64,000 nucleotides of DNA from Heptranchias perlo. Its lineage: Eukaryota. This document shows positions 4,439-48,285 of the stretch, one piece after another; positions within the stretch are counted from its first letter, which is position 1, and each line of letters starts with the position of its first letter. Both the position numbers and the translations under genes were made by a program. A model generated the notes under the pieces. It was not told where the DNA came from. It saw nothing but the letters and a program-made list of their open reading frames with translations, and did not search any database. The stretch lies in assembly GCF_035084215.1 (NCBI RefSeq), contig NC_090363.1, positions 13,268,001-13,332,000 of the forward strand. Direction: 5' to 3'.

Positions 4439-4834
4439 ATGGCTTTGAGTTTCAATGAGAGTTTACTGTGCTCCATCTGTATTGAGCTCCTGAATGATGC
4501 GACCACCCTGGACTGTGGGCACAGTTACTGCACGTCCTGCATCACCGAATACTGGGACAACCAGCACCCCAAAGTTTCCTGTCCCGACTGCCGGGTGAGC
4601 TTTCCACGCAGGAGCCTGAAGGCGGTCCACGCCCTGAGGAATGAGGTGGAGAGAATCCGGGGGGATCAGGCTGCGAGGCAGGGCCGGCGGGGAGATCAGT
4701 GCCGGCAGCACGGCCGGCCGCTCACCTGGTTCTGTGAGACTGACATGAAGGCGATCTGTGCGGAGTGTGGAGAGGGAGCAGCTCACCCTCAGCACACACT
4801 GAGGGCCATCAGTGACGCTGTTACTGTTTACAAG
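4439..4834 (+). CDS. TRIM (TRIM39/A33-like) exon 1: RING + B-box2
   Basis: C3HC4 RING CSIC..CGHSYCTSC..CPDC; B-box CRQH..FCETD..ICAEC..HPQH; donor AAG|GT, 396 bp, phase 0. Confidence 0.95.
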
Positions 4835-9488: not shown

Positions 9489-9584
9489 GGCGAGCTGAAG
9501 GAATCTTTGGACAGACTGAAGGAGGACGAGGAAGTCATCAACCGGGTTCAACTTAAACAAAAACACAACATTTCAGAGATCGAA
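9489..9584 (+). CDS. TRIM exon 2 (coiled coil)
   Basis: tag|GGC..GAA|gtaagt, 96 bp, the typical TRIM-B30.2 exon size. Confidence 0.9.
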
Positions 9585-9673: not shown

Positions 9674-9907
9674 AAAGTCTATGCGTCTGAGATGAACCAC
9701 ATCGAACAAGATTTCACTGAAATGAGCCAGTTCCTCAGAGCAAAAGAGCAAAGACTGGTGGAAGAACTGGAGGAAAAGAAGGACGAAATTGTGAAAAGGA
9801 TGGAATTAAGATTGGGGGAAATCCAGGAATGTCTGACATCCACTGGAGCGGAAATCGTAAAGAGGGAGAAACAGATGGAGGAACAAGACAACTTTATATT
9901 CCTGCAG
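9674..9907 (+). CDS. TRIM exon 3 (coiled coil)
   Basis: cag|AAA..CAG|gta, 234 bp, FTEMSQFLRAKEQRLVEELEE. Confidence 0.9.
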
Positions 9908-10199: not shown

Positions 10200-10222
10200 G
10201 AATTCAGTTTTCTAAGGCAGAG
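10200..10222 (+). CDS. TRIM exon 4 (23-bp mini-exon)
   Basis: polypyrimidine tract, aag|GAATTC..AG|gtatgt; 23 bp as in other TRIM-B30.2 genes. Confidence 0.85.
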
Positions 10223-10320: not shown

Positions 10321-10436
10321 GCCTCCGGAAGACTTTAAGGCACCAGGTGATATATCTGAAGATCTCTCCTTGGAGATATTAAAAGGCCCTTTACAATACA
10401 GCGTGTGGAAAGAATTGAGGGACGCCATCAGACCAG
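10321..10436 (+). CDS. TRIM exon 5 (linker)
   Basis: cag|G..CCAG|gtga; encodes KGPLQYSVWKEL, a motif typical of fish/shark TRIMs; phases consistent. Confidence 0.9.
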
Positions 10437-11616
10437 GTGAATTGTTAGAAAGAAAGTAAGGCTTGCATTTATATAGCGCCTTTCATGACCTGGTTTGGTA
10501 ACACGGAGCGATCGATTGCCATTTGGAGAATGACTGCAGCAAGAAGGGTCATTTCAAAAAGCATTCTGAGATCTTGAGGCTGATCAGTCTGCCTCCCTTC
10601 CCTCCCCTCTCCCCCTGACTGACTGGCAAGATGGCCTTGATGTATATGAACCTGCCCTCAAGATTTAGTCATGGGTCCGAAACCAGGCCAGAATGGCGGT
10701 CCCAAGTTCTGCTCCATCTTATTTCCGGCAGCAGATCGGGGATCCTGGGATTTCAGGGCATGATCCCATTATTGCACTGCTTTAAGATTGATGGGTAGAA
10801 ATCTGAACGGTTGGAATGAAGAGCTGGATAATGGATCAATCTTAGGAATGTCAGGGTGTAAACACACAGCTCCGAAATCTAGGCCCTGAATTTCGGCGGG
10901 GATAACGCCATTCACCCGTCCTACCAACGGCGAGAGACCGGGAGAATCCCTACGGAAATTCAGGATCCTGGGGCCTGGAGATTGCTTTCCATGGAAGAAC
11001 CGTCACTCAACTCAATCCAACCAATTTGGAGGTTAACCCAGTCCAATCCACACTTAATGGTTCACTGCAACTTTCCCAGATTATCGTTAGTCTGAGCCAG
11101 GACCTTACCCGAGGGCAAATGAGATCAATCCATTCTTACTGATCCTGCTATTCCCTCCTCATCCCCTTATGTTGCTCCGACCAATGCTCTAGATCATTCT
11201 GCTGGCTCAGATGTCTGCAGGACAGAATTCTGGTGGTTGGACGGATTCTAGGGGTGGGTGGATTCTGGGGGGGCGGGTGACTGGTTGGCTGGTGGTAGTG
11301 GGCTGTCTAGCTGGCCCACTTCAAATGGGGGCAGGCTAGCCTTCGATGGCTGACTGCCCCAAGTCTCTGCTCTGCTGTTCCCAGTCTCTAATCCACCTCA
11401 TCGAGCGCTATAAGCATTTGGTTCTCTCTTAAATTTCTGATGTTTATTTTGATTAATCTAAAAGTTGTTTCTGTTCTACTCTCCCTAAGATATAAATGTG
11501 TGACAATCAATTGATAATCATGTTGCAGAAATTGACCTTGAGGTGTCATGGAATTTTTGGTGGCCTTGAATAAATGATGTCTAATATCTTCTTGATCTAT
11601 TTCTGTTTTGTTACAG

Positions 11617-12983
11617 GCCCTGCCTCGCTGACTCTAAACCCTGTCACGGCAAATCCGTGGCTTACTTTGTCTGAGGACCTGACAAGCGTGAGACATGGGA
11701 GTGAGGAGCAGCGATTCCCTGACAACCCTCAGAGATTTGACCTGTGTCCCTGTGTCCTCAGCTCTGACGGATTCACATCGGGGAAGCACTACTGGGAGGT
11801 GAGAGTGGGGAACAAGACCACCTGGACTGTGGGGGTGGCCCGCGAGTCAATCAACAGGAAGGGGGAAATCATACTATCGCCTTCCAATGGATACTGGGCG
11901 GTGGGACTGAGGAACGGGTCTAAATACAAGGCGTTTACCCCATCGCTGACTGATCTCTGCCTGGATATGAAACCCAGGGAGATTGGAGTTTACCTGGACT
12001 ATGAGGGAGGACAAGTATCCTTTTATAATGCTGGTGACATGTCCCATCTTCACACCTTCAGTGACACATTCACTGAGAAGCTCTTTGCTTTCTTCAGTCC
12101 AGGGTTGAATCATGGCAGTAAAAATGCTGAACCCCTTCAGCTGCTTCACTCGATCGTTACAAATCCCAACACCGAGGAGGATGGAACTAGTTCCTGCCCA
12201 GATCTTGAAAGGGAAGATGCAACAATCACCACTTCCAAGGGGAATGCTGTCCACTTGGATCGGAGAGTGTGGCAATGGGCTTGGCTGTGCTTTGGCTTAT
12301 TGGTCTTACTGGGAGCCGCCTCACCAGGAAACGCTAATTTCACGGAGATATACTTGGTGTGTTGTAGTATGCTGGGATTTGTTGGTTTATGCTGGTCGCT
12401 GCTGGATAACAAAAGTCTTGCAGGGATTTCCTGGGTGTACTGCGGCGTACTGGGCTACGCTGGGATGTGTTGCTTACTGCTGGCTCATGCTGGACTTGTT
12501 GGAATCTGCTTGGTTACGTTGAGCTTACTTGGGTTGTGTGTTGCTTCAAAAAGTTACATTGGGCCGCTCTGTGTGGTGCTGAGCTATGCAAGCCTTGTTG
12601 GACTATTATGGTTATTGGACAATGATATTTGGATGTGGTGGGTCTGCTGTGGCTTGCTGGGGCATGCTGGCTCATGCTTGTCTTCGTTAGGCTATGACAA
12701 TGGTGCTGAGATTTGCTGGTGGTGTTGTGGTACAAAGGGGTACGTTGGATTGTGTCTTCTACTGGTGAGCTTTTATGGACTTGTTGGTTTATGCTGGATT
12801 ACAGTGGGCATCATTGGGCTATGCTTGGCTCTGACAGGCTACGTTCGGAACCATTGGATTACGGCTGGCTTGCTGGGCTACAGTGGCGTATGGTGTGTCT
12901 TGGTGGGCAACGCTGAGCTTTCTGCAGTTACACTGGGCGTCGCTAGTTTCTCATGGTCATGTTGGTCCTATTATTCCCACTAA
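11617..12983 (+). CDS. TRIM exon 6: PRY/SPRY (B30.2) plus long multi-TM C-terminal extension
   Basis: [44 protein letters not shown]; frame stays open about 280 aa further to TAA; spliced CDS 2232 nt = 743 aa. Confidence 0.9.
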
Positions 12984-13314
12984 GTTTGGTTTGTACAACT
13001 ACCCTGCCCTTGAGTTCTACGCAGATTGATAAACCTGTACTGTCCATTGCTTTTTGCCAACCTAAACCACAACTACATAAACATGCAGTGGGACTTAATC
13101 TGGACCTTTACTCCGTATCTCTGGACCATCTGTGTTCCTGCCTGTGACCATGTGCTTTCTCAGCCAACACCAGTTGTCCTATCATTCAATTTCTAAATTT
13201 GTTGGTGAAAGTAGGACCAGCCATCTTTTAAGAGATTCATCCCTTTTACGTTTTCTCTCCAATTTTCTCTCCTTTCTTTTAAAAGACTAATGAAAAAGTA
13301 TTTTTGATTACAAT

Positions 13315-18757: not shown

Positions 18758-18853
18758 GGTACGTTCCTGGTGACCCAGGCTGTTGCCAAAGCGCTGATCG
18801 CCAGCGGTGCCAAGAAGGGCGCCATCATCAACCTGGGGAGCATTGTGGGTAAG
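18758..18853 (+). CDS. HSD17B8: HSD17B8 exon 4 (first visible)
   Basis: GTFLVTQAVAKAL..GAIINLGSIVGK, cag|..|gtac. Confidence 0.92.
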
Positions 18854-21609: not shown

Positions 21610-21695
21610 GTTGGAAATCTGGGACAGGCAAATTACACAGCATCCAAAGCTGGAGTGGTGGCTCTGACAAAGACCAGTGCGAAAGAACTGGCCAG
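21610..21695 (+). CDS. HSD17B8: HSD17B8 exon 5 (catalytic YxxxK)
   Basis: [29 protein letters not shown]. Confidence 0.93.
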
Positions 21696-22124
21696 GTACT
21701 CAGTATTGTGTGTCACTGGGGGTGTGTGTGTGTGTGTGTCACTGGGTATTACAAGGTCTGCCTTATACTGTGCATGTTATAGGGTGTGCGTTATACTGTG
21801 TGCCTGTTACAGGGTGTGCGTTATACCATGTGTTACGGGATGTGTGTTACACTGTGTTACTGTGTGTGCGTTATACTATGTATTACTGTGTGTGTTATAG
21901 GGTGTGCGTTATACTGTGTTACTGGGTGTGTGTTAGTGTATTACTGTGTGTGTTACAGGGTGTGCATATTACTGTGTGTTACTGTATGTGTTACAGAGTG
22001 TGCATTATACTATGTGTTACGTTGTGTGTTAGTGTGTATTACGTTGTGTGTTACAGTGTGAGTTACAGATCAGCTGTTGCATTCAGTGTATTACAATGCC
22101 ACCGTGTGTGTTATGATGTGTTTT

Positions 22125-22667: not shown

Positions 22668-25600
22668 ACATACAGCCCCTCGAGCCTGCTCCGCCATTCA
22701 ATAAGATCATGGCTGATCTTCGACCTCAACTCCACTTTCCCGCCCGATCCCCATATCCCTTGATTTCCTTAGAGTCCAAAATTTTATCTATCTCAGCCTT
22801 GAATATATTCAGTGACTCAGCATCCACAGCCCTCTCAGGTAGAGAATTCCAAAGATTCACAACCCTCTGAGTGAAGAAATTCCTCCTCATCTCAGTCCTA
22901 AATGGCCGACCCCTTATCCTGAGACTATGCCCCCTCCAGCCAGGGGAAACAGTCTCTCAGCATCTACCCTGTCAAGCCCCCTCAGAATCTTTTATTTTTC
23001 AATGAGATCACTTCTCATTCTTCTAAACTCCAGAGAGTATAGGTCAGTCCTTCTCAGTCTCTCCTCATAGGACAATCCTCTCATTTCCAGGAATTAATCT
23101 AGTGAACCTTCATTGCACCTACTCCAAAGCAAGTATATCCTTCCTTAGATAAGGAGACCAAAACTGTACACAGTATTCCAGGTGAGATCTCACCAAAGTC
23201 CTGTACAATTGTAGCAAGACTTCCTTACTCTTTACTCCAACCCCCTTGCAATAAAGGCCAACATACCATTTGCCTTCCTAATTGCTCGCTGAACCTGCAT
23301 GTTAACTTTCTGTGTTTCGTGGACAAGGACATCCAAATCCCTCCGAACACCAACATTAATAGTTTCTCACCATTTAAAAACTATTCTGTTTTTTTATTCT
23401 TCCTACCAAAGTGAATAACCTCACATTTCCCCACATTATATTCCATCTGCCACCTCCTTGCCCTCTCACTTAATCTGTCTGTATCCCTTTGCAGACTCTT
23501 TGCATCCTCCTCACAGCTCACTTTCCCACCTAGCTTTGTATCCTCAGCAAACTTGGATACATTACACTCGGTTCCTTCATCTAAGTCATTAATATAGATT
23601 GTAAATAGCTGAGGCCCAAGCACCAATCCTTGTGGCACCCCACTAGTTACAGCCTGCCACCCTGAAAATGACCTGTTTATCCCTACTTGCTGTTTTCTGT
23701 CCGTTAACCAATCCTCTATCCATGCTAATATATTACCCCCAACCCCATGAGCCCTTATCTTGTGTAACAACCTTTTGTGTGGCACCTTATCGAATGCCTT
23801 TTGAAAATCCAAATATACTACATCCACTGGTTCCCCTTTATCTACCCTGCTCGTTACATCCTCAAAAAACTCTTAATAGATTTGTCAACACGATTTCCCT
23901 TTCATAAAACCATGTTGACTCTGCCTAATATGATTTTCTAAGTACCCTGTTACCACTTCCTTTACCAATAATGGATTCCAGCGTTTTCCCGACGACTGAT
24001 GTCAGGCTAACTGGCCTGTACGTAAGAACATAAGAAATAGGAGCAGGAATAGGCCATATGGCCCCTCGAACCTGCTCCTTCATTCACTAAGATCATGGCT
24101 GATCTTCGACCTGAACTTCACTTTCCCGCCCGATCCCCATATCCCTTGATTCCCCTAGAGTCCAAAAATGTATCTATCTCAGCCTTGAATATCCTCAACG
24201 ACTGAGGTGGAGAATTCCAAAGATTCACAACCCTCTGAGTGAAGAAATTCCTTCTCATCTCAGACTTAAATGGCTGACCCCTTATCCTGAGACTATGCTC
24301 CCTAGTTCTAGACTCTCCAACCTCTCAATATCTACCCTGTCAAGCCCTCTCAGAATCTTATATGTTTCAACGAGGTCACCTCTCATTTTTCTAAACTCCA
24401 GAGAGTAGAGGCCCATTCTACTCAATCTCTCCTCATAGAACAACCCTCTCATTCCTGTAGTTCCCTGTTTTCTCTCTCCCTCCTTTCTTGAATAGCGGGG
24501 TTACATTTGCCACCTTCCAATCCACTGGGACCGTTAAAGAATCTAGGGAATTTCGGAAGATCAGAACCAATGCAACCACTATCTCTACAGCCACCTCTTT
24601 TAGAACCCTAGGATGTAGGCCATCAGGTCCAGGGGATTTATCGGCTTTTAGTCCCATTAATTTCTCCAGTACCTTTTCTTTACTAATATTAATTAATTTA
24701 AGTTCCTCACTCTCAGGCCCATTTAGTTCCCCACTATTTCTGGTTTGCTTTTTGTGTCTTCTACTGTGAAGACAAATACAAAATATTTGTTTAACATCTC
24801 TGCCATTCCTTCCCCATTATAATTTCTCCTGTCTCAGCCTCCAAGTAACCCATGTTTACTTTCGCTAATCTCTTCCTTTTTACGTACTTGTAGAAGCTCT
24901 GACAATCTGTTTTTATATTTCTTGCTAGTTTACTCTCATATTCTATTTTCTCCCTTTTTATGAGTTTTTGGTCATCCTTTGCTGGTTTCTAAAACTCTCC
25001 CAATCCTCAGGCTTACTACTATTCTTCACATCATTATAGGCCTCTTCTTTTAATCCAATACTCTCCTTAACTTCTTTAGTTAGCCACGGATAGATCACTT
25101 TTCCGCTGGAGTTTTTATTTCCCAGTGGAATCATAGAATCATGGAAGTTTACAACATGGAAACAGGCCCTTCGGCTCAACATGTCCATGTCGCACAGTTT
25201 ATACCACTAAGCTAGTCCCAATTTCCTGCACTTGGCCCATATCCCTCTATACCCATCTTACCCATGTAACTGTCCAAATGCTTTTTAAAAGACAAAATTG
25301 TACCCGCCTCTACTACTGCCTCTGGCAGCTCGTTCCAGACACTCACCACCCTTTGAGTGAAAAAATTGCCCCTCTGGACCCTTTTGTATCTCTCCCCTCT
25401 CACCTTAAATCTATGTCCCCTCGTTATAGACGCCCCTACCTTTGGGAAAAGATTTTGACTATCTACCTTATCTATGCCCCTCATTATTTTGTAGACTTCT
25501 ATAAGACCACCCCTTAACCTCCTACTCTCCAGGGAAAAAAGTCCCAGTCTATCTAACCTCTCCCTATAAGTCAAACCATCAAGTCCCGGTAGCATCCTAG

Positions 25601-26322
25601 TAAATCTTTTCTGCACTCTTTCTAGTTTAATAATATCCTTTCTATAATAGGGTGACCAGAACTGTACACAGTATTCCAAGTGTGGCCTTACTAATGTCTT
25701 GTACAACTTCAACAAGACATCCCAACTCCTGTATTCAATGTTCTGACCAATGAAACCAAGCATGCCGAATGCCTTCTTCACCACCCTATCCACCTGTGAC
25801 TCCACTTTCAAGGAGCTACGAACCTGTACTCCTAGATCTCTTTGTTCTATAACTCTCCCCAACGCCCTACCATTAACGGAGTAGGTCCTGGCCCGATTCG
25901 ATCTACCAAAATGCATCACCTCACATTTATCTAAATTAAACTCCATCTGCCATTCATCGGCCCACTGGCCCAATTTATCAAGATACCGTTGCAATCCTAG
26001 ATAACCTTCTTCACTGTCCACAATGCCACCAATCTTGGTGTCATCTGCAAACTTACTAACCATGCCTCCTAAATTCTCATCCAAATCATTAATATAAATA
26101 ACAAATAACAGCGGACCCAGCACCGATCCCTGAGGCACACCGCTGGACACAGGCCTCCAGTTTGAAAAACAACCCTCTACAACCACCCTCTGTCTTCTGT
26201 CGTCAAGCCAATTTTGTATCCAATTGCCTACCTCACCTTGGATCCCGTGAGATTTAACCTTATGTAACAACCTACCATGCGGTACCTTGAATGTATGTTC
26301 ATTGAGAATATTTCTTTAAATG
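22668..26322 (-). mobile_element. Nested CR1 complex: host CR1 with inserts at 24021-24453 and 25132-26288
   Basis: RT motifs YLDFQKAFDKVPH, GVPQG, FADD; flanking duplications cctgta (24015/24454) and gaat (25128/26289). Confidence 0.85.
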
Positions 26323-44668: not shown

Positions 44669-46340
44669 CTACTCGGATTCCTCGCTCGCCGGCTGCGGTT
44701 TCTTCCCGAGTTTGCCCCGGACGGCGATGGCTCGGTCGACGGTCAGCAGGCTCCTCAGGCACTGCAGCGCCGAAATCAGCAGGTGCCGTTTGGAGGCCAC
44801 CACCTCCAGGGGCCCCTCGTTCACCGGCGGCCCCCCTCCCGCCCCGAGACCGGCGGTGAAGTCGGCGTGAAGCCGGAGGAAGTCCCGGCCCCGCCCGGCC
44901 TGGGAGTGAACGTGCCGGGGGATGTTGAGCAAGGCGTCCGCCACCACGGTGCACGCCGCCCTGGTGTCGGGCCGCTGCCGGCTCTCGGCGTCACGCCGGA
45001 GGTAGTGGTGCATCAGGAACTCAAAGGCGCCGCCCGGGGGCAGCACGCTCCCGGCAGGCACGGCACCATCGCTCGGGTCCCCCTCCCGGGCACTGGCTGC
45101 CGGATCTGCCGACCGGCAGCGGTCGACTCCCTCTGCCGGAGTCTCGGACTCGGTGTCCTGGATCCTCTTGCTGTTGGCACCCGCCTGGCCCTCCGTTTCA
45201 TCTTCGGCTCTCCCCAGCTCCCCGGCCCCGCGTCTCTCGCTCCCCTTCCCCAGCCCGCTGTCTTTCCCCCTCGCCCCCGACTCCGGCGGCAGCAGCAGCC
45301 GCAGCAGCTTGAAGGCCCCGTGGACTGCGTCGCGATGCTGCGCGGCCTGCCCCTGGACCGGGGCGCACAGCACCAGGCAGTGGGGTCTGAAACCGTCCCT
45401 GGCCTGGAATCCCACCAGAACCTGCCCGAGCGGCCCTGGCCGGCAGAAGGTGGCCAGGACGGTGTGGGAGAGCTGAGCCCCCCTGGCCCGAGAGAGGGGG
45501 GCCGCGCCCGTCAGCCTCCTCACCAGGCCCAGCTCCTCCCCCGACAGGCCCTGAACCACCGAGACCCCGTGTTGCTGGGCTAACTCGAGCACGCAGCCCG
45601 GCTGCTGGGGGCCTGAGAGCAGCAGCCGCACCCCCAGCCCCCGCAGGCCAGCCACGGCCTCCTCTGCCCTACTCCGGGCCCAGGCTCGGGCCTCCGCCAG
45701 GTCCTGGGCCCTCTCCAGCCTCAAGGTGCAGCCAGCCTGGCTCAGGGGGGGCAGCAGGCTGCAGGTGACCACCAGCACCCTCATCTCCCCCTCGGCCTGG
45801 CAGAGCACGGCCAGGCCCCGGCCCAGCGCCAGGCCCTCCAGCACCCTGGTGCGGCCCACGGGGAGGCCGGTCACCGTGCAGTGCAGGCCTGAGAAGCATT
45901 CGTCGGCGAGGCCCAGGGCCGTCTCCACGCCCCCCTCAGGGGGAGCCAGGCAGCCCAGGAGCTCGAGGGTGACCCGGGTGAGGACGGGGCCGTGGGCACT
46001 GCCCGCCTTGCCGCTGAAGTAAGGCCCCAGCACCCGGGCCGCCTGCCCCCTGGGGAGCTGGGACCGGCCCCGGGAGAAGGAGAGGGCCGAGGAGCAGTGA
46101 GGGGCCAGCTGACGCCCCATCACCCGGTCCAGGACCTCCACCTCCAGCCTGGCCAGGCCCAACGCCAGCCTGGCCTGCTGCGCTCGGGCTCTCTGCCCTC
46201 TGCTCCCCCCCACCCCAGCGGGGCCTTCCCCTCCCGTCTGGGCCTGCACTCCCCGCAGCAACGCGGCCAGCAGCAGGATGAAGGACTTGGCTCCGTCTCC
46301 AGTCGAGCTGCAGTGGGCTAACACACACTGAACCATCAAC
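44669..46340 (-). CDS. BBS10: BBS10 chaperonin-like protein, last coding exon
   Basis: LMVQCVLAHCSSTGDGAKSFILLL, LVLCAPVQG, VLPPGGAFEFLMHHYL, PLEVVASK; acceptor ttttccccag|G. Confidence 0.93.
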
Positions 46341-46540
46341 CTGGGGAAAACAAGGAGAATTACACCGAGTTACATTGAATGCACAGCACAGAAACAGGCC
46401 ATTCGGCCCAACTGGTCTATGCTGTTGTTTATGCTCCACACGAGCCTCCTCCCTCCCGAATTCATCTCACCCTGTCACCTTATCCTTCTATTCCTTTCTC
46501 CCTCATGTGTTTATCCAGCTTCCCCTTAAATGTATCTATG

Positions 46541-48285
46541 TGCGGAACCACAAGAGATGGGTGAGATCCTGAATGAATATTTCACATCGGTATTTACGGT
46601 TGAGAAAGGCATGGATGTTAGGGAACTTGGGGAAATAAATAGTGATGTCTTGAGGAGTGTACATATTACAGAGAGGGAGGTGCTGGAAGTCTTAACGCGC
46701 ATCAAGGTAGATAAATCTCCGGGACCTGATGAAATGTATCCCAGGACGTTATGGGAGGTTAGGGAGGAAATTGCGGGTCCCCTAGCAGAGATATTTGAAT
46801 CATCCACCGCTACAGGTGAGGTGCCTGAAGATTGGAGGGTAGCAAATGTTGTGCCTTTGTTTAAGAAGGGCGGCAGGGAAAAGCCTGGGAACTACAGACC
46901 GGTGTGCCTGACATCTGTAGTGGGTAAGTTGTTCGAGGGTATTCTGAGGGACAGGATCGACAGGCATTTGGAGAGGCAGGGACTGATCAGGAACAGTCAG
47001 CATGGTTTTGTGAGAGGAAAATCATGTCTCACGAATTTGATTGAGTTTTTTGAAGGGGTAACCAAGAAGATAGATGAGGGCTGTGCAGTAGACGTGGTCT
47101 ACATGGACTTCAGCAAAGCATTTGACAAGGTACCACATGGTAGGTTGTTACATAAGGTTAAATCTCATGGGATCCAAGGTGAGGTAGCCAATTGGATACA
47201 AAATTGGATTGACGACAGAAGACAGAGGGTGGTTGTAGAGGGTTGTTTTACAAACTGGAGGCCTGTGACCAGCGGTGTGCCTCAGGGATTGGTGCTGGGT
47301 CCGTTGTTATTTGTTATTTATATTAATGATTTGGATGAGAATTTAGGAGGCATGGTTAGTAAGTTTGCAGATGACACCAAGATTGGTGGCATTGTGGACA
47401 GTGAAGAAGGTTATCTAGGATTGCAACGGGATCTTGATAAATTGGGCCAGTGGGCCGATGAATGGCAGATGGAGTTTAATTTAGATAAATGTGAGGTGAT
47501 GCATTTTGGTAGATCGAATCGGGCCAGGACCTACTCCGTTAATGGTAGGGCGTTGGGGAGAGTTATAGAACAAAGAGATCTCGGAGTACAGGTTCATAGC
47601 TCCTTGAAAGTGGAGTCACAGGTGGATAGGGTGGTGAAGAAGGCATTCAGCATGCTTGGTTTCATTGGTCAGAACATTGAATACAGGAGTTGGGATGTCT
47701 TGTTGAAGTTGTACAGGACATTAGTAAGGCCACACTTGGAATACTGTGTACAGTTCTGGTCACCCTATTATAGAAAGGATATTATTAAACTAGAAAGAGT
47801 GCAGAAAAGATTTACTAGGATGCTACCGGGACTTGATGGTTTGACTTATAGGGAGAGGTTGGATAGACTGAGACTTTTTTCCCTGGAGAGTAGGAGGTTT
47901 AGGGGTGATCTTATAGAAGTCTATAAAATAATGAGGGGCATAGATAAGGTAGATAGTCAAAATCTTTTCCCAAAGGTAGGGGAGTCTATAACGAGGGGGC
48001 ATAGATTTAAGGTGAGAGGGGAGAGATACAAAAGGGTCCAGAGGGGCAATTTTTTCACTCAAAGGGTGGTGAGTGTCTGGAACGAGCTGCCAGAGGCAGT
48101 AGTAGAGGCGGGTATAATTTTGTCTTTTAAAAAGCATTTGGACAGTTACACGGATAAGATGGGTATAGAGGGATATGGGCCAAGTGCAGGCAATTGGGAC
48201 GAGCTTGGTGGTATAAACTGGGCGACATGGACATGTTGGGCCGAAGGGCCTGTTTCCATGTTGTAAACTTCTATGATTCTATGAT
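46541..48285 (+). mobile_element. Young 5'-truncated CR1 LINE with uninterrupted RT frame, nested in an older minus-strand CR1 3' fragment (about 46365-48365)
   Basis: 578-aa ORF with YMDFSKAFDKVPH, GVPQG, FADD; near-identical to 25132-26288. Confidence 0.95.

Follow-up and report, generated by a model that had tools for sequence, protein, structure and literature searches.

An elasmobranch TRIM-B30.2 protein with a predicted multi-pass membrane tail of probable repeat-DNA origin

A B30.2 exon of the shark Heptranchias perlo is continued in frame by a long hydrophobic stretch, which raises the question whether a TRIM protein has here gained a membrane domain, where such a domain came from and what the protein does with it. 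The exon lies in the window, that is, the whole 64,000-nt stretch of contig NC_090363.1 that was analysed and to which all coordinates refer unless stated otherwise. A sequence-only reading of this DNA had proposed a membrane-embedded RING/PRY-SPRY ligase of an undescribed architecture. As far as the literature goes this description stands, since a search found no paper on this shark TRIM protein; most subscription journals lay outside the search.

Gene structure and transcription

The gene was modelled as six exons, all with AG/GT ends, which join to a protein of 743 aa. Its translation is identical to P0001, the automatic NCBI 'TRIM39-like' model for Heptranchias perlo. The features of the gene are as follows:

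4439..4834, + strand: coding exon 1, RING (C3HC4) and B-box 2 (Pfam zf-C3HC4 and zf-B_box, over cut-off)
9489..9584, + strand: coding exon 2, 96 nt, coiled coil (AG/GT ends; the joined model equals P0001)
9674..9907, + strand: coding exon 3, 234 nt, coiled coil (exon model; Pfam TRIM_CC at residues 155-267)
10200..10222, + strand: coding exon 4, 23 nt (contigs from 3 of 4 runs show a GT..AG splice to exon 5)
10321..10436, + strand: coding exon 5, 116 nt (contigs from 4 of 4 runs show a GT..AG splice to exon 6)
11617..12149, + strand: first part of exon 6, B30.2 (PRY-SPRY; Pfam PRY E 2.8e-22, SPRY E 2.1e-27)
12150..12260, + strand: acidic linker in exon 6, about 37 aa, poorly conserved (33% mean pairwise identity; no 10-base signal)
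12261..12980, + strand: orphan hydrophobic domain in exon 6, 240 aa, 8-10 predicted membrane helices (composition, hydropathy, models, profile search)
12336..12905, + strand: apparent decayed 10-base minisatellite under the domain core, about 57 units of 9-10 nt (lag-10 z 7.4; tiling; TRF)
12348-12590 and 12633-12875, + strand: two copies of an about 95-aa (285-nt) four-helix unit (hhalign; DNA self-match)
12981..13290, + strand: TAA stop and start of the 3' UTR (transcript contigs extend about 90 nt past 13290)

Exon 6 spans 11617-12983 and belongs to a single open frame (11574-12983, + strand) that runs through B30.2, with PRY at 11628-11774 and SPRY at 11784-12122, and closes at the TAA at 12981-12983. 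As first read from the letters, there is no stop after PLQLL. About 37 acidic or polar residues come next and are followed by 240 hydrophobic ones. A Pfam scan of the 743-aa protein placed RING at residues 11-51, B-box at 85-122, TRIM_CC at 155-267, PRY at 293-341 and SPRY at 345-457, and reported no family C-terminal to SPRY. The 240 residues of the tail include 13 charged ones (5.4%) and consist of 19% Leu, 13% Gly, 9% Cys and 7% Trp. Polar residues cluster at a spacing of 20-26 positions, and ten hydrophobic segments with mean Kyte-Doolittle values of 1.3-2.1 can be distinguished, in line with the roughly ten hydrophobic stretches of little charge noted at the outset. The recurring motif C-G-x-x-G-[FYH]-x-G-x-C, also noted then, is present in exactly three copies (tail residues 61, 130 and 156), with looser copies in other helices.

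Transcription was assessed with contigs of four runs, out of eight listed, from two organisms. The runs are not recorded as RNA; we take the contigs to be transcripts because their spliced joints, not the run label, show it. In two runs of one sample, exon 4 is spliced to exon 5 and exon 5 to exon 6 at GT..AG within single contigs, 2828 and 2870 nt long. The contigs of this sample skip the intron (depth 0 over 10570-11514) and show 0 differences over 11614-13290; they may underlie the NCBI model and so are not independent of P0001. Two runs of a second organism, from another study, gave spliced contigs of about 93% identity, which reach from exon 5 through B30.2 to 12620 and 12349 and carry 6 additional nt, in frame, in the linker; the rest of the tail is covered by other contigs, of which none spans it whole. 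At 12150 itself the contigs read across with no stop or indel, and none ends or is spliced near 12260, as expected if the continuous frame was read correctly. The TRIM39-like gene is transcribed with its tail as one piece.

By every sequence test applied the protein is a TRIM that falls outside both class C-IV and class C-XI. RING, B-box and TRIM_CC, the features of the TRIM (RBCC) family, all score over the Pfam cut-off, and PRY-SPRY (B30.2) lies C-terminal to the coiled coil as in class C-IV. With class C-IV TRIMs (at NCBI TRIM39-like, TRIM69-like, A33-like and nuclear factor 7-like) the protein shares all four domains, the exon sizes of 96/234/23/116 nt and a B30.2 gene cluster in a probable MHC region. 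Here, however, B30.2 is not the last domain: 280 residues follow it, whereas 48 of 48 excised paralogous B30.2 exons stop 1-25 aa after B30.2, and an integral membrane protein is predicted. TRIM13 and TRIM59 of class C-XI are single-pass proteins, whereas the shark protein keeps B30.2 and has 8-10 predicted passes; it is most closely related to B30.2 genes of the same scaffold that have no tail. The likeness to class C-XI consists in a tripartite motif combined with a C-terminal transmembrane region (PMC10445537, PMC4021871), which in the shark protein is a predicted one, but class C-XI TRIMs are described in the accessible text of PMC4021871 as having no SPRY or other C-terminal domain. MHC-linked TRIMs and class C-XI are both covered in PMC10445537. 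The combination of B30.2 with a predicted multi-pass membrane domain is an undescribed TRIM architecture, real and new. Database entries of the gene carry misleading automatic names, and no domain is called on the tail.

Distribution and origin of the tail

Protein database searches found the tail in 16 species, comprising 12 sharks (Heptranchias, Pristiophorus, Heterodontus, Cetorhinus, Carcharodon, two Scyliorhinus, Stegostoma, Rhincodon, two Chiloscyllium and Hemiscyllium) and four batoids (Pristis, Hypanus, Hemitrygon and Leucoraja). The orthologous tails are whole in all 16, as a functional domain would imply, with 46-74% identity to the window, near-constant length and few indels. Mean pairwise identity among nine proteins is 65% for B30.2, 59% for the coiled coil, 57% for the tail, 54% for RING-B-box and 33% for the linker. 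A profile of ten tails was run against 1.84 billion proteins and gave two matches, both orthologs; these proteins are cluster representatives, so relatives within 50% identity are hidden inside the clusters. Searches of 90% clusters returned no chimaera or bony fish protein with the tail. Among the proteins searched the tail thus appears to be restricted to elasmobranchs, absence from chimaeras being not proven, and the term 'chondrichthyan' used in the sequence-only reading should read elasmobranch.

Could the tail nevertheless be a non-functional or merely destabilising read-through product, or an artefact of assembly or annotation? Its apparent origin from repeat DNA, described below, and the lack of a homolog outside one orthogroup would fit. 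A whole frame of near-constant length that keeps 46-74% identity in 16 species while the linker next to it drifts to 14-68%, together with spliced transcripts in two organisms, largely refutes this explanation, which we now hold to be very improbable.

In the Heptranchias perlo genome the tail matches once, i.e. the gene is single-copy, and none of the others among 150 listed B30.2 matches has a frame that could accommodate a comparable tail. One neighbouring B30.2, whose open frame measures 386 aa, was considered as a second long tail and rejected, its extra length being upstream intron. All 15 tail-bearing B30.2 domains group in a single clade (FastTree 0.994), which is nested within genes of the same contig that lack the tail; this argues for one gain of the tail, predating the divergence of sharks and rays roughly 250-300 million years ago. 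Heptranchias, catshark, sawfish and stingray share the same upstream neighbour TRIM. Compared over the same species, B30.2 identity is 60-71% for the membrane TRIM versus 79-83% for this neighbour; the membrane TRIM therefore changes faster, consistent with relaxed constraint or with a ligand that changes. The neighbour lies at G000:C42:13238493-13239005 (L003), its B30.2 being 79-83% identical to the catshark and ray orthologs, and in Pristis, Hemitrygon and one Scyliorhinus model automatic annotation has joined it to the membrane TRIM.

The DNA of the tail matches itself at lags of 10, 20, 30 and 40 nt (z 7.0, 5.2, 4.4 and 3.4). Helical (3.6-residue) periodicity was considered as the source of this signal and rejected, because the self-match is flat at the in-frame helical lags 9, 12, 21 and 33. 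The lag-10 signal is confined to 12336-12905, with z about 5 in each half, and drops to at most 1.3 in the first and last helix, the linker and the UTR. Over the core it reaches z 7.4, whereas none of 48 paralogous B30.2 exons exceeds 1.2 and a different coding region of the window stays at or below 2.2. Tiling of the core with 57 units of 9-10 nt scores 153 versus 5-28 in 12 codon shuffles, TRF reports period 10 at 12645-12678, and a hexamer common to the units occurs in all three codon phases. When the protein is held fixed and synonymous sites alone are scored, lag 10 is still the top lag, marginally so (z 3.4 versus a null 95% maximum of 3.2); a 4-mer version of this analysis reached 3.7, under its mark of 4.0.

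Three units correspond to ten codons. The peptide they encode matches the helices in 8 of 8 orthologs, scoring 241-338 versus shuffle maxima of 162-197; as the decamer consensus was learnt from the same DNA, the fit to the window protein is partly circular, and the non-triplet period is the independent fact. All 24 of 24 variants of the consensus are stop-free in every frame. At a larger scale the tail contains 26/23-residue sub-repeats and an internal duplication of 95 residues (hhalign probability 98.8%, 38% identity over 81 columns; best of 30 shuffles 3%), with a DNA match of 0.565 at lag 285. Live 10-base arrays with the same 6-base core were found at five loci of the genome (26 overlapping matches versus 0 in the reversed control), and their translations give similar Cys/Trp/Leu/Val/Ala/Gly peptides. 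These loci (L010 on G000:C20, L011 on G000:C30, and others on C35, C38 and C1142) sit towards the ends of their contigs, around the first or last megabases, or on a small scaffold.

Taken together, it is likely that the tail arose de novo from a 10-base minisatellite before the shark-ray split. In the simplest history the frame of an ancestral tail-less TRIM would, after loss of the stop codon, have continued into a T/G-rich decamer array in its 3' UTR. Having no stop in any frame, such an array would yield a hydrophobic repeat of the Tyr-Ala-Gly-Leu-Cys-Trp type, and duplications of 78 nt and 285 nt with selection for short polar loops may have led to a helical bundle. Expansion of the decamer inside an already extended frame is a possible second route. 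Downstream of the stop, 48 paralogs show neither a decamer array nor DNA similarity to the tail, i.e. the non-coding ancestor was not seen there.

Formation of new C-termini by stop loss (PMC4494051), transmembrane-first emergence from T-rich DNA (PMC7005711) and the origin of antifreeze glycoproteins and mucins from tandem repeats (PMC12776774) have been described. The shark tail resembles these cases in the recruitment of non-coding or repeat DNA into protein and in a hydrophobic product from T-rich DNA. As far as the accessible texts describe them, however, they are short and recent or consist of unfolded, glycosylated repeats of triplet units, and repeat units of non-3n length typically disrupt coding (PMC12776774). 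In contrast, a 10-base unit in three frames apparently gave a 240-aa helical domain that has been kept since the shark-ray split. For protein evolution this represents an unusually clean test case, since the source DNA unit of a large membrane domain is seemingly legible after a few hundred million years. It allows asking directly if the translation product of a minisatellite enters membranes and folds there, and which later changes (polar loops, duplications) turned it into a domain.

Membrane topology of the tail

AlphaFold2 with 10 sequences predicted an all-helical tail of ten helices (pLDDT 50, pTM 0.31). With 15 sequences the model was again all-helical (pLDDT 65, pTM 0.59), with helices 3 and 4 fused into one 47-residue helix; the other four models of this run had pLDDT 47-54. 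With loop limits taken from the first model, K/R totals over 10 orthologs, which are not independent of each other, amount to 61 on the predicted cytosolic side versus 12 on the other. Loops 2, 4, 6 and 8 each exceed loops 1, 3, 5, 7 and 9 in K/R, which is rank 1 of 126 arrangements; by net loop charge alone the rank is 8 of 126. Loops 1, 5 and 9 are acidic. The N-terminus was placed in the cytosol because RING and B30.2 require it. We read the tail as crossing the membrane 8-10 times with both ends in the cytosol, as modelled, and on hydropathy, loop charges and models it is very likely a multi-pass membrane domain. The membrane-embedded TRIM-B30.2 of the sequence-only reading is borne out as a real, expressed and elasmobranch-wide fusion, its membrane part being probably multi-pass by prediction.

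Loop 3 does not follow the pattern, being weakly polar with 9 K/R in 15 sequences although predicted luminal. This, the very short loops and the unbroken 47-residue helix of the better model would suit a tail of reticulon- or oleosin-like hairpins in one leaflet, with fewer than ten true crossings, that targets lipid droplets or curved ER. We give such hairpins a slim chance, as the alternation of acidic loops 1, 5 and 9 with K/R-rich loops 2, 4, 6 and 8 is the one expected of true crossings.

Searches for relatives of the multi-pass domain agreed with the early impression that it matches no described domain. Pfam returned 0 families for the window tail and one chance match (E 0.31) in one of 10 orthologs, and a PDB sequence search with the tail returned 0 at E 10. 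In the ESM Atlas the best value for the tail was 0.77, under the lead mark, and the whole protein led to ordinary TRIM clusters. Foldseek against PDB and viral sets gave 0 at E 0.001 for tail models of modest confidence, and the best hits of VIA-align wide (Z 8.4 and 5.7) are within the background for helical bundles. A lack of sequence or fold matches to these models does not by itself show a new fold.

The Gly-zipper/Cys-rich helices had initially been taken for a pore or oligomerisation module. On the argument given, this interpretation lacks support, the motif being the three-frame translation of a 10-base repeat: C-G-x-x-G-Y-x-G-x-C is what the decamer unit encodes and hence weak evidence for a pore. 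It is quite improbable that the tail itself is a channel, pore or small-solute transporter, built of two four-helix repeats around a pseudo-two-fold axis and gated or turned over by the TRIM head. Internal duplication is common to many transporters and is present here over 95 aa, and a few conserved polar residues lie in or beside helices (E29 and D120, invariant in 10 sequences, and K/Q/H at 159). But the DNA unit accounts for the Gly/Cys pattern, there are almost no polar residues along the helices, and 57 of the 58 invariant positions, i.e. other than one Pro, form no recognisable pore motif and are mostly Leu, Gly, Trp and Cys. An N-F-T glycosylation sequon at 12339-12347 (tail residues 27-29) falls into predicted luminal loop 1 and is shared by 4 of the 10 tails aligned; this loop is probably not long enough for its use.

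Ligase function, related proteins and genomic context

All eight C3HC4 zinc ligands of RING are present in the Heptranchias perlo protein. A complete RING occurs in 9 of 12 shark species, the models of the remaining three being N-terminally short, and the full B-box pattern is kept in 4 of the 9 RING-bearing species. RING precedes the coiled coil in 0 of 4 ray and skate models, with a 10-residue remnant in sawfish. These models (P0006, P0007, P0019 and P0011) have no RING or B-box ahead of the membrane TRIM coiled coil. The RING ligase proposed at the outset thus stays a candidate for the sharks with a complete RING, and ligase activity may not be universal; judged from the models, RING loss across the ray lineage is possible.

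On balance we favour an expressed, single-copy elasmobranch TRIM-B30.2 with a predicted multi-pass tail, probably repeat-born, that would act as a ubiquitin ligase tethered to a membrane of the secretory pathway and facing the cytosol. Judging from TRIMs in general, the coiled coil would dimerise the protein, B30.2 would bind a cytosol-facing target and RING would ubiquitinate it for degradation or signalling. The tail would fix the dimer in ER or endosome and may select membrane substrates within the bilayer. HRD1, TRC8/RNF139 and the MARCH family likewise carry a cytosolic RING on a multi-pass anchor, a functional analogy, and MARCH1/8 control MHC II and CD86 (PMC4021871). They differ in having no tripartite motif or B30.2, and their membrane domains are unrelated to the tail by Pfam, HMMER and fold search. 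A membrane-tethered TRIM ubiquitin ligase with B30.2 as receptor, functionally like HRD1, TRC8 and MARCH, has a somewhat better than even chance of being the mechanism.

Butyrophilins are MHC-linked membrane proteins with a cytosolic coiled coil and B30.2. They differ from the shark TRIM in being type I single-pass proteins with a signal peptide, extracellular Ig domains and a C-terminal B30.2, whereas here B30.2 precedes the membrane domain, no ectodomain is present, the Pfam scan shows no Ig family and the N-terminus is a RING. The main rival to a tethered ligase is a butyrophilin turned round: a ligase-independent membrane sensor or scaffold with a core of coiled coil, B30.2 and membrane domain and with RING as an ancestral extra, in which the cytosolic B30.2 would sense a ligand and the membrane part would relay the signal or recruit partners. 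The absence of RING from all four ray and skate models, whose tails are whole, favours a ligase-independent role there; the B-box decays in several sharks, and RING-B-box is the least conserved folded part (54%). As a general account we nevertheless find it unlikely, because the RING ligands are intact in 9 shark species of five or more orders. In addition, the ray models are automatic, two being fused to the neighbour gene and one tail-only, and the missing RING may reflect a gap in annotation or assembly.

Predicted transmembrane segments have been reported before for TRIM-family proteins of fish with B30.2-type relatives (PMC3137616, PMC10048487). Zebrafish btr31 has the order RING-TM-B30.2, with one transmembrane segment between RING and B30.2 that replaces B-box and coiled coil (PMC3137616), and carp CcTrim29, 480 aa long and hydrophilic overall, has a predicted transmembrane segment (PMC10048487). 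Both differ from the present case in being single-lineage predictions, and they show no sequence relation to the shark tail.

The genomic surroundings of the TRIM suggest a link to the MHC. An HSD17B8 exon lies at 18761-18853 (+ strand), 5.8 kb downstream of the TRIM (best PDB match human HSD17B8, E 1e-5), and a ZIP-family gene, presumably SLC39A7, about 0.45 Mb upstream. In elasmobranchs hsd17b8 and slc39a7 have been placed in the MHC, with HSD17B8 as an extended class II marker, and the main text of the same paper makes no mention of TRIM or B30.2 (PMC10751288). A search of the genome for MHC class I and class II alpha exons matched other, small scaffolds only and none on the TRIM contig, and a class II beta search gave no match; several of the matching small scaffolds also carry close B30.2 paralogs. 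By hand count, about 79 B30.2 exons are situated on the 21-Mb contig, among 150 matches listed. The large B30.2 assembly on G000:C42 and small scaffolds constitutes an undescribed shark TRIM cluster. MHC linkage of the membrane TRIM is probable. Given this likely location the role of the protein would probably be in immunity, genomic context being the one argument for an innate-immune function.

We cautiously incline to regard the protein as a member of a new polytopic TRIM class that would monitor or degrade membrane proteins, with a folded domain of about ten passes derived de novo from a minisatellite read in three frames, MHC-linked and kept since the shark-ray split. For immunology and ubiquitin research it adds an undescribed TRIM architecture, probably encoded within the MHC, from the oldest vertebrates that possess adaptive immunity.

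Some further elements were noticed during mapping. B30.2 genes are interleaved with MHC class I-like exons on scaffolds C1080, C1097, C1101, C1105, C1406 and C1424. A second HSD17B8-like short-chain dehydrogenase exon was read by eye at about 21611-21696 (+ strand). At 44669-46369 (- strand) a GC-rich open frame of 566 aa matches Cpn60/TCP-1 and is an odd neighbour for an MHC region; we take it to resemble BBS10. Long reverse-transcriptase frames are located at 46530-48266 (+ strand, 578 aa) and 25212-26315 (- strand, 367 aa) and presumably represent CR1/L2-type LINEs.
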